Shown here: positions 28,355-35,066 of the stretch, piece by piece
Layout: every line of letters begins with the position of its first letter
How positions within the stretch are numbered: position 1 is the first letter of the stretch
Assembly: GCF_016903815.1 (NCBI RefSeq)
Contig: NZ_CP069973.1
Reading direction: 5' to 3' (one strand)
Source of the DNA: Escherichia coli
Lineage (GTDB): Bacteria; Pseudomonadota; Gammaproteobacteria; Enterobacterales; Enterobacteriaceae
Length of the DNA stretch: 64,000 nt
Made by a program: the position numbers and the translations under genes
Notes under the pieces: generated by a model
What the model saw: only the letters and a program-made list of their open reading frames with translations
The model's database searches: none
Told to the model about the DNA's origin: nothing

Positions 28355-30195
<1,841 letters not shown>

Positions 30196-30222
30196 ATCCT
30201 TTTCAGCCGCGTAATGGTTTGT

Positions 30223-30240
30223 TTGCAAAGCGGATGCCAG
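30223..30240 (-). promoter_or_regulatory. Candidate sigma-54 (-24/-12) promoter for rutA
   Basis: Reverse complement reads CTGGCATCCGCTTTGCAA, matching TGGCA-N7-TTGCA with correct GG/GC spacing, about 30 nt upstream of rutA ATG. Confidence 0.55.
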
Positions 30241-30425
30241 TTTTTAAAAAGTGAATGTTATTAATATGTTAATGTTAAGTTGTCTAAAATATCTGGAAAA
30301 AAGTGGACTAAACGGTCAAAACAGTTGCACATAAAACATGCATCCGTGCGCGATGAAAGTGCAGAAGGTCGAGCCCGGGCAGGGGTTTTGCTATCCTGTT
30401 GCCAATCTACAAGAGGGGAGAGCGC

Positions 30426-31064
30426 ATGACGCAAGGCGCAGTGAAAACAACGGGTAAACGTTCGCGCGCAGTGAGCGCGAAGAAAAAAGCGATTCTTAGC
30501 GCAGCACTGGACACTTTTTCACAATTCGGTTTTCACGGCACAAGGCTGGAGCAGATCGCAGAGTTGGCAGGCGTTTCAAAAACCAATTTGCTGTATTACT
30601 TCCCGTCAAAAGAGGCGCTGTATATAGCCGTACTGCGGCAGATTCTCGATATCTGGCTGGCACCGTTAAAAGCGTTTCGTGAAGATTTCGCCCCGCTGGC
30701 GGCGATCAAAGAGTACATCCGTCTGAAGCTGGAAGTCTCACGCGATTATCCGCAGGCTTCACGTCTGTTTTGTATGGAGATGCTGGCAGGCGCACCGCTG
30801 TTAATGGATGAACTGACGGGTGATTTGAAAGCATTAATTGATGAGAAATCGGCGCTGATTGCCGGTTGGGTCAAAAGCGGCAAACTCGCGCCGATTGATC
30901 CGCAGCATTTGATTTTTATGATTTGGGCTTCCACTCAACATTACGCCGATTTCGCCCCTCAGGTGGAGGCGGTGACAGGCGCGACGTTGCGCGATGAGGT
31001 ATTTTTCAATCAAACGGTTGAAAACGTGCAGCGGATTATTATTGAGGGGATTCGACCACGTTAA
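30426..31064 (+). CDS. rutR: TetR-family repressor RutR
   Basis: 212 aa beginning MTQGAVKTTGKRSRAVSAKKKAILSAALDTF; divergent from rutA. Confidence 0.95.
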   Translation: MTQGAVKTTGKRSRAVSAKKKAILSAALDTFSQFGFHGTRLEQIAELAGVSKTNLLYYFPSKEALYIAVLRQILDIWLAPLKAFREDFAPLAAIKEYIRLKLEVSRDYPQASRLFCMEMLAGAPLLMDELTGDLKALIDEKSALIAGWVKSGKLAPIDPQHLIFMIWASTQHYADFAPQVEAVTGATLRDEVFFNQTVENVQRIIIEGIRPR

Positions 31065-34100: not shown

Positions 34101-35066
34101 TTCATAGATGCCACGACCATTGGACGCTTTACCAATGGCGTGAATCGCCTGCTGATAGGAAACCATATACGCCTGTGCATCTGCGGCGGTCAGCGCGGCT
34201 TCGCCCAGCATATCGTAAGAGTAACGGAAACCTTTCTCTTCCAGCTTGCGGGCATTGGCTAACGCTTCCGCGATGGTTTCGCCAGTGACGAACTGCTCGC
34301 CCATCAGGCGCATCGCCATATCCACACCTTTGCGGATCAGCGGTTCACCGCTCTTACCGATAATGCGGTTCAGCGAGCGTGAGAGGCTGGCTTCGTTATG
34401 GGTGGAAACCAGTTTGCCAGTAAAAAGCAGCCCCCAGGTCGCGGCATTAACAAACAGGGACGGGCTACGACCAATGTGTGACTGCCAGTTACCGTTGCTG
34501 ATTTTGTCGCGAATTAACGCGTCGCGGGTGGCTTTGTCGGGAATACGCAACAACGCTTCTGCCAGACACATCAGCGCCACGCCTTCCTGCGATGACAGCG
34601 AAAACTCCTGCAATAACCCCTGGACCATACCTGCGCGACCACTGGCATTTTTTTGATTACGCAGTTTATCGGCCAGTTGATATGCCAGTTTATGCGCCTG
34701 TTCAGCAATCGGCTGCGGCAGGCGAGCTTGTTCCAGCAACATAGAAACCGCTTCGGTTTCCGGGCGGCGATAGGCAGCGGTGATCGCGGCGCGGGAAACC
34801 GACTGGGGCAAAATTTGCTCGGCAAAGTCGAGGAAAGGCTGGTGTGGTTCCTCTGCCGGAGTCGGTGCTTCATCGCTCTCATTGGCAGCGCCAGAGAGCA
34901 GCGCAGGTAGCTCCGGAAGAGTATCGCTGTTTTCCAGTTGTTCAAGATAAGAAAAAATCGCCTGCTTAATTAACCAGTGTGGCGTGCGATCGATACGTGT
35001 CGCGGCAGACTTAATACGCTCACGCGTCGCGTCGTCCAGCTTAACCCCCATGGTGGTGGTTCCCAT
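31104..35066 (-). CDS. putA: Bifunctional proline dehydrogenase / P5C dehydrogenase and repressor PutA
   Basis: 1320 aa beginning MGTTTMGVKLDDATRERIKSAA (ribbon-helix-helix N-terminus). Confidence 0.97.
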   Translation of the reverse strand: MGTTTMGVKLDDATRERIKSAATRIDRTPHWLIKQAIFSYLEQLENSDTLPELPALLSGAANESDEAPTPAEEPHQPFLDFAEQILPQSVSRAAITAAYRRPETEAVSMLLEQARLPQPIAEQAHKLAYQLADKLRNQKNASGRAGMVQGLLQEFSLSSQEGVALMCLAEALLRIPDKATRDALIRDKISNGNWQSHIGRSPSLFVNAATWGLLFTGKLVSTHNEASLSRSLNRIIGKSGEPLIRKGVDMAMRLMGEQFVTGETIAEALANARKLEEKGFRYSYDMLGEAALTAADAQAYMVSYQQAIHAIGKASNGRGIYEGPGISIKLSALHPRYSRAQYDRVMEELYPRLKSLTLLARQYDIGINIDAEEADRLEISLDLLEKLCFEPELAGWNGIGFVIQAYQKRCPLVIDYLIDLATRSRRRLMIRLVKGAYWDSEIKRAQMDGLEGYPVYTRKVYTDVSYLACAKKLLAVPNLIYPQFATHNAHTLAAIYQLAGQNYYPGQYEFQCLHGMGEPLYEQVTGKVADGKLNRPCRIYAPVGTHETLLAYLVRRLLENGANTSFVNRIADTSLPLDELVADPVTAVEKLAQQEGQTGLPHPKIPLPRDLYGHGRDNSAGLDLANEHRLASLSSALLNSALQKWQALPMLEQSVAAGEMSPVINPAEPKDIVGYVREATPSEVEQALESAVNNAPIWFATPPAERAAILHRAAVLMESQMQQLIGILVREAGKTFSNAIAEVREAVDFLHYYAGQVRDDFANETHRPLGPVVCISPWNFPLAIFTGQIAAALAAGNSVLAKPAEQTPLIAAQGIAILLEAGVPPGVVQLLPGQGETVGAQLTGDDRVRGVMFTGSTEVATLLQRNIASRLDAQGRPIPLIAETGGMNAMIVDSSALTEQVVIDVLASAFDSAGQRCSALRVLCLQDEIADHTLKMLRGAMAECRMGNPGRLTTDIGPVIDSEAKANIERHIQTMRSKGRPVFQAVRENSEDAREWQSGTFVAPTLIELDDFAELQKEVFGPVLHVVRYNRNQLPELIEQINASGYGLTLGVHTRIDETIAQVTGSAHVGNLYVNRNMVGAVVGVQPFGGEGLSGTGPKAGGPLYLYRLLANRPESALAVTLARQDAEYPVDVQLKAALTQPLNALREWAANRPELQALCTQYGELAQAGTQRLLPGPTGERNTWTLLPRERVLCIADDEQDALTQLAAVLAVGSQVLWPDDALHRQLVKALPSAVSERIQLAKAENITAQPFDAVIFHGDSDQLRALCEAVAARDGAIVSVQGFARGESNILLERLYIERSLSVNTAAAGGNASLMTIG

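Follow-up and report, generated by a model that had tools for sequence, protein, structure and literature searches.

Our analysis indicates that the spacer between rutA and rutR is almost certainly the divergent control region of rutABCDEFG (minus strand) and rutR (plus strand), activated by sigma-54 and NtrC and repressed by RutR in the absence of uracil. The two elements that the initial annotation had put forward in this spacer, a sigma-54 promoter for rutA and a RutR operator, are already known E. coli elements. Because published experiments cover identical sequences, both assignments were already established, and the two elements rank as textbook-level E. coli entries documented by ChIP, SELEX, EMSA, ITC, and mutagenesis. 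Real regulatory elements could be identified at this locus from the sequence alone.

The window that we analysed is a 64,000-nt stretch of E. coli contig NZ_CP069973.1. The open reading frame list shows minus-strand RutA, RutB, RutC, and RutD and plus-strand RutR around the spacer, with PutA farther downstream. A 701-bp query across the spacer matched 5,421 of 5,426 complete E. coli genomes, in which the annotated features were rutA and rutR. The interval 30196-30425, earlier taken as the whole rutA-rutR spacer, has those limits under the long rutA annotation of K-12. Under the PGAP annotation of an identical strain, with rutA extending to 30138 and rutR beginning at 30426, the spacer is instead 30139-30425. 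The features of the region are collected in Table 1.

Table 1. Coordinates of features at the rutA-rutR locus (window positions; -12, -24, and centre positions of the sigma-54, NtrC-like, and IHF-like sites refer to the rutA promoter)
Feature	Position	Strand	Basis and remarks
rutA CDS from conserved start (MKIGVF..., 363 aa)	29047..30138	-	PGAP of identical strain; RutA homology
rutA 5' leader, ~75 nt	30139..30213	-	Predicted sigma-54 start to ATG 30138
Shine-Dalgarno GAGAGG	30145..30150	-	6 nt upstream of ATG 30138; CCTC core invariant in 10-spacer alignment
Conserved leader element, sense AAAAGGAUAUGCAGGAUGCAGCGCC	30179..30203	-	Two GGA motifs; hypothetical CsrA-type site
Alternative in-frame ATG, K-12 382-aa RutA	30193..30195	-	NC_000913.3 annotation; probably not the native start
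Predicted rutA transcription start (+1), within ~2 nt	30213	-	-12 GC position; rule of PMC4591121
Sigma-54 promoter CTGGCATCCGCTTTGCA	30224..30240	-	-24 GG 30237-30238, -12 GC 30225-30226; ChIP-seq, gSELEX, conservation
IHF-like site TATTAATATGTTA	30259..30271	+	Putative; 1 mismatch to WATCAANNNNTTR; centre -52
Candidate rutR sigma-70 promoter	30261..30290	+	-35 TTAATA 30261-30266, -10 TAAAAT 30285-30290, start ~30297; consensus scan
RutR operator (RutR box) TGGACTAAACGGTCAA	30304..30319	.	Published RutR site; arms conserved
NtrC-like dyad 1 TGCACATAAAACATGCA	30326..30342	.	Centre -121; putative enhancer site; 9/12 of TGCACC-N5-GGTGCA
NtrC-like dyad 2 TGCGCGATGAAAGTGCA	30347..30363	.	Centre -142; putative enhancer site; 9/12 bases
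Conserved block TTTTGCTATCCTG	30386..30398	+	~30 nt upstream of rutR ATG; resembles extended -10 (TGcTATCCT)
rutR CDS (TetR-family repressor, 212 aa)	30426..31064	+	ORF list and annotation

The same locus in K-12 is the rutAp/rutR region (Loh et al. 2006; Shimada et al. 2007, 2008; Nguyen Le Minh et al. 2015; Bonocora et al. 2015). The sigma-54 17-mer, the RutR 16-mer, the specified bases of the NtrC-like dyads, and the -10 element are identical in the two strains. We counted 13 substitutions relative to K-12 in the 230-bp spacer, none on specified motif bases and two on N positions. Within E. coli, divergence of the spacer is unusually high: the flanks that we compared carry no substitution (162 bp of rutA) and one (76 bp of rutR). 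The substitution at 30266 weakens the candidate rutR -35 element.

The sigma-54 promoter suggested for the rutA strand at 30223-30240 is present as described, with the motif pointing towards rutA. Read directly from the sequence, the reverse complement of this interval is CTGGCATCCGCTTTGCAA, and its core TGGCATCCGCTTTGCA (TGGCAT-N5-TTGCA, 30224-30239, minus strand) has one mismatch to TGGCAC-N5-TTGCW, with GG and GC intact and the spacing correct. Sigma-54 binding has been detected experimentally on the identical 17-mer, as the ChIP-seq peak OS10 carries CTGGCATCCGCTTTGCA on the minus strand and is assigned to rutA (Bonocora et al. 2015, PMC4591121). An in vitro genomic SELEX analysis of the RpoN holoenzyme also yielded a peak between rutA and rutR, at 1073268, whether or not NtrC was present (Shimada et al. 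2021, PMC8743547). As of 2015, EcoCyc classed the rutA promoter as 'predicted' (PMC4591121). We placed the predicted transcription start 12 nt downstream of the -12 C, which corresponds to the rule of Bonocora et al. of 19 bp downstream of the motif centre (PMC4591121). Our literature search returned no nucleotide-level mapping of the rutA transcription start.

The RutR operator TGGACTAAACGGTCAA matches 11 of the 14 specified bases of the palindrome TTGACCAnnTGGTCAA and retains A and T at key positions 4 and 13, respectively. An imperfect palindrome had been noted at about 30302-30318; it exists, with its true place at 30304-30319 (1-2 nt away), and an identical 16-mer has been published for the rutA intergenic region as the RutR site, a ChIP-chip target with the same 11/14 match (Shimada et al. 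2008, PMC2475637). This site was among 16 RutR targets that shifted in EMSA, all 16 of which carry the consensus at positions 4 and 13. RutR ChIP-chip targets in the same study, rutA among them, were chosen by an at least 2-fold fall in signal with uracil, so that occupancy of the site is uracil sensitive (PMC2475637). The RutR binding for which EMSA had been recommended as a check is likewise in print, since a 2024 acetylation study performed both EMSA and ITC with RutR on a boxrutA 50-mer (PMC10891134). This 50-mer corresponds to window positions 30283-30334 apart from one strain polymorphism and contains the RutR box. Another report locates the box downstream of where rutR transcription begins and upstream of the sigma-54/NtrC-regulated rutA promoter, and shows that rutR loses its uracil-sensitive negative autoregulation when the box carries a 4-bp operator-constitutive substitution (Nguyen Le Minh et al. 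2015, PMC4325133). In the window, the box has its centre at -98.5 relative to the rutA promoter and, because the candidate rutR start lies at ~30297, covers about +8 to +23 of the candidate rutR promoter.

To compare this arrangement across species, we scanned one genome per species with RutR, which gave 80 loci, and compared 24 spacers consisting of the window and 23 other loci, each with rutA divergent from rutR. Every one of the 24 spacers, which range from Escherichia to Yersinia and Erwinia, had a sigma-54 motif with 0-1 mismatch on the rutA strand, and the -12 C of this motif was 44-90 nt from the conserved rutA ATG. A RutR box lay upstream of the sigma-54 motif in 24/24 spacers, and the order of the two elements was the same throughout. 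An alignment of 10 of these spacers (Escherichia, Klebsiella, Raoultella, Enterobacter, Leclercia, and one MAG) revealed GCAAA at -12, TGCCAG at -24, and both arms of the RutR box to be invariant. We observed a single RutR box at -98.5 in the E. coli group and a tandem pair at about -107.5 and -88.5 (~19 bp apart) in most spacers of Erwinia, Yersinia, Rosenbergiella, and Chimaeribacter; two-box loci include L057:1616-1973, L060, L045, L055, and L058 from Yersinia, Erwinia, and Rosenbergiella. An apparent movement of the RutR box in 10-bp steps was an artefact of scoring only the best of the two tandem boxes in Erwinia and Yersinia.

Farther upstream of rutA, the two NtrC-like dyads at -121 and -142 are likely to form the NtrC enhancer. 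A 9/12 match alone is not significant, with 29 NtrC-like matches observed over the whole window against 33.6 expected. In the 10-spacer alignment, the TGCAC...GCA ends of dyad 1 and the TGCGC and GTGCAG of dyad 2 were invariant and the centres of both dyads variable. A homologue of dyad 1 was found at -120 to -122 or -130 to -133 in other genera, and an equivalent of dyad 2 with 2 mismatches (TGCACC...GCGCA) in Klebsiella and most other one-box spacers. The proximal NtrC-like dyad lay 22.5-23.5 bp from the nearest RutR box in both groups of spacers, at about -131 in those with two boxes and at -121 in those with one, a shift of one helical turn. Expression of rut is said to be NtrC dependent, as attributed to Zimmer in 2000 and Loh in 2006. 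NtrC occupancy of the region has been observed by ChIP-seq in nitrogen-starved cells as a 94-fold peak at rutA-G, listed there as ycdMLKJIHG, its former name (Brown et al. 2014, PMC4066584). At the resolution of ~80 bp of that experiment, the called peak lies over the rutA promoter and not over the dyads, and the NtrC peaks of glnK, glnH, and astC likewise lie over promoters (PMC4066584). No footprint or mutation of the NtrC-like dyads was found in our literature search.

Between the putative enhancer and the promoter, in an AT-rich context, sits the IHF-like site, which fits an IHF-induced bend at -52. An IHF-like match with at most 1 mismatch to WATCAANNNNTTR was centred at -53 to -51 on the rutR strand in 17 of the 24 spacers and was perfect in Yersinia and one MAG; the background elsewhere in the AT-rich -95 to -25 tracts was 1 match per 1,632 positions. 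This conservation has an alternative explanation because the site shares bases with the candidate rutR -35 element. A literature search, with the supplements of the IHF ChIP-seq study outside its range, returned no IHF binding data at rutA.

Two alternative readings of these elements can be weighed against the proposed control region. The matches might be chance resemblances with no regulatory role, and motif counts over the window are indeed at the level expected by chance: we observed 3 sigma-54-like matches against 4.1 expected in shuffled sequence, with no enrichment, and 3 RutR-like matches against 2.9 expected. Because both counts are at chance level, a motif match alone is no evidence. 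What stands above chance is the orientation of the sigma-54 motif towards rutA, the place of the elements in the divergent spacer, and the conservation of both in 24/24 spacers. With direct binding data on identical sequences and mutagenesis of the box also against it, the chance reading has a negligible probability and is already refuted by published data. A more restricted reading holds that the RutR box is the autoregulatory operator of rutR, a roadblock at +8 to +23, with little or no direct effect on the NtrC-governed rutA promoter. The quantitative role of RutR is less well documented at rutA than at rutR: our literature search found operator mutation to have been applied to rutR autoregulation only, with no such test on rutA expression, and the authors of PMC4325133 call the mechanism at rutA 'proposed'. 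In addition, rutR deletion did not derepress rutA or raise its mRNA in exponential phase without nitrogen limitation (PMC10891134), indicating that removal of RutR alone is insufficient. However, the rutA promoter would be off anyway in that experiment, and the literature describes RutR as a repressor of both wings. Furthermore, the spacing between the box and the nearest NtrC-like dyad is fixed across genera, and the order of the box relative to the sigma-54 promoter is fixed although the part of the spacer towards rutR differs by >100 bp between genera. Together, these points make an operator that serves rutR only quite unlikely, and we favour RutR control of both rutR and rutA.

A third alternative concerns the start of rutA and thereby the length of its leader. 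The initial annotation had the promoter only about 30 nt from the rutA ATG and predicted a very short leader; this claim rested on ATG 30195 and does not hold. Because the conserved rutA start is ATG 30138 and not ATG 30195, the short form of RutA changes the predicted leader from ~18 to ~75 nt; leaders in relatives span 32-78 nt. The annotations conflict, with RutA having 382 aa in the K-12 reference record NC_000913.3 (1072863-1074011) and 363 aa in PGAP-annotated strains like this one. Both forms have been crystallised, the long form, after its expression, as PDB 5WAN and the short 363-aa form as PDB 6SGG. The promoter-gene distance of 18 given by Bonocora et al. also uses ATG 30195 (PMC4591121), and the ATGCAGGATGCAGCGCC block is conserved. 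Against the long form, similarity among RutA proteins starts at the Met of MKIG in 24/24 orthologous loci. The 19-codon extension is interrupted by a stop codon in one other E. coli genome, lies in a different frame in two Klebsiella species, and is missing through deletion from the Enterobacter cloacae group. An in-frame stop also occurs within 3-5 codons of the MKIG ATG in Erwinia, Chimaeribacter, and Yersinia aleksiciae. The conserved block itself persists in Erwinia without the ATG. The spacing of the ribosome-binding sequences points the same way, with AAGGA only 1 nt before ATG 30195 versus the conserved GAGAGG 6 nt before ATG 30138. The comparative evidence thus favours the short 363-aa RutA from ATG 30138, and a 382-aa native product with a leader of ~18 nt is very unlikely. 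We also rejected ATG 30195 as the start of coding sequence in general, whether an N-terminal extension or an upstream ORF, as neither the frame nor the ATG is conserved.

For the divergent control region that we favour, we propose the following mechanism. The sigma-54 holoenzyme binds the -24/-12 element, as experiments show, and is predicted to initiate transcription near 30213. As at every sigma-54 promoter, an enhancer-binding ATPase is required, here NtrC, which would supply the nitrogen-limitation signal and has been detected on the region under nitrogen starvation. NtrC most likely assembles on the putative dyads at -121 and -142, and it probably reaches the closed complex by looping over the AT tract, which may be bent at the IHF-like site. 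In the absence of uracil, one RutR dimer binds 30304-30319, and uracil releases it. With the box located on the promoter side of the nearer NtrC-like dyad, at a distance of 6 bp, and just downstream of the presumed rutR sigma-70 start, a single RutR position could both repress rutR and damp rutA-G. RutR bound at -98.5 may hinder the assembly of the NtrC oligomer sterically or may interfere with DNA looping, and it may also block RNA polymerase leaving the rutR promoter. The lack of rutA induction upon rutR deletion without nitrogen limitation would be expected from this mechanism because the promoter is activator dependent.

Promoters of the glnAp2/glnHp2 type consist of a -24/-12 element with two NtrC dyads >100 bp upstream, with an IHF bend between them and the promoter at glnHp2. 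Like these promoters, rutA has a -24/-12 element and two NtrC-like dyads, and its candidate IHF bend parallels the one at glnHp2. In contrast, rutA has a TetR-family operator between the putative enhancer and the IHF-like site, its NtrC-like dyads are weak (9/12), and its NtrC and IHF sites are predicted. The RutR box also has a known counterpart at carAB P1, TTGACCATTTGGTCCA (13/14), which is bound by the same protein, belongs to the same family of 16-bp palindromes, and shows uracil-sensitive binding (PMC2475637 and PMC4325133). According to the same two sources, the carA site has a higher affinity, lies far upstream (-184.5), and exerts a positive effect, whereas the 11/14 rutA/rutR site is repressive.

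On the rutR side of the spacer, the position of the candidate sigma-70 promoter identified by our consensus scan agrees with a box downstream of the rutR start as given in PMC4325133. We also observed a conserved block close to rutR at 30386-30398, which reads TTTTGCTAT(C/G)CTG with one variable base across the 10 aligned sequences and has the counterpart TTGCTATGATG in Pantoea conspicua. This block may represent a second rutR promoter. Because it lies downstream of the RutR box, such a promoter, if real, would be outside RutR control.

The ~75-nt leader includes a conserved GGA-rich element. E. coli, Klebsiella, Raoultella, and Leclercia share a 17-nt block of this element without any difference, and the pattern AAGGA...GCAGGAUGCA (AAGGA-N6-GCAGGAUGCA) of the element can still be discerned in Erwinia and Pantoea despite the loss of the ATG there. 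In the spacer comparison, the E. cloacae group had lost the element by deletion, and Yersinia lacked it. The two GGA motifs are 9 nt apart, the second within UGCA-GGA-UGCA, with no GGA at the Shine-Dalgarno sequence; the context of the second matches the CAGGAUG repeat of CsrB. The element is a candidate site for CsrA or another RNA-binding regulator that might place rutA under post-transcriptional control by carbon status. A more layered region of this kind, with such control in addition to an IHF bend and the shift of the enhancer between genera, is a tentative and on balance unlikely reading. If true, the leader element would add a post-transcriptional layer to the nitrogen- and uracil-controlled Rut pathway. 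Folding of the rutA leader gave a minimum free energy no better than that of shuffled sequences (z = +1.1), and the consensus fold contained 4 pairs with no compensatory changes or covariation. The CsrA CLIP-seq data contain no rutA peak under growth without nitrogen limitation, when rutA would hardly be transcribed, and no publication linking CsrA or IHF to rutA was found in our literature search. A peak of the same CLIP-seq data set, peak_110, lies inside the rutR CDS (K-12 1074528-1074704, corresponding to window positions 30712-30888; Potts et al. 2017).

Several further matches were noted in the window. The other one-mismatch sigma-54-like matches were TGGGACAGCGTTTGCA at 10767-10782 and TGGCACCTCTTTTGTT at 21925-21940, both on the minus strand, of which TGGGACAGCGTTTGCA retains GG and GC and TGGCACCTCTTTTGTT lacks the -12 GC. 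We attributed a sigma-54-like GGGCAG-N5-TTGCT on the rutR strand (overlapping 30376-30391) to chance, as it is unconserved in Klebsiella in the 10-spacer alignment. The second sigma-54 site that Bonocora et al. reported near the rut operon (OA02) is absent from the window at up to 2 mismatches. Other three-mismatch RutR-box-like matches were found at 34930-34945, inside putA, and at 57300-57315; both are unlikely to bind RutR well because the consensus base is missing at key position 4 or 13.

Finally, our scan revealed many rutR loci with rutA absent within 2 kb upstream (L002, L003, L005-L017, L020, and others), including those of Citrobacter species, Salmonella enterica subsp. arizonae, Escherichia albertii, and E. 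coli E69. RutR therefore appears to be kept without an adjacent rut operon in those genomes.
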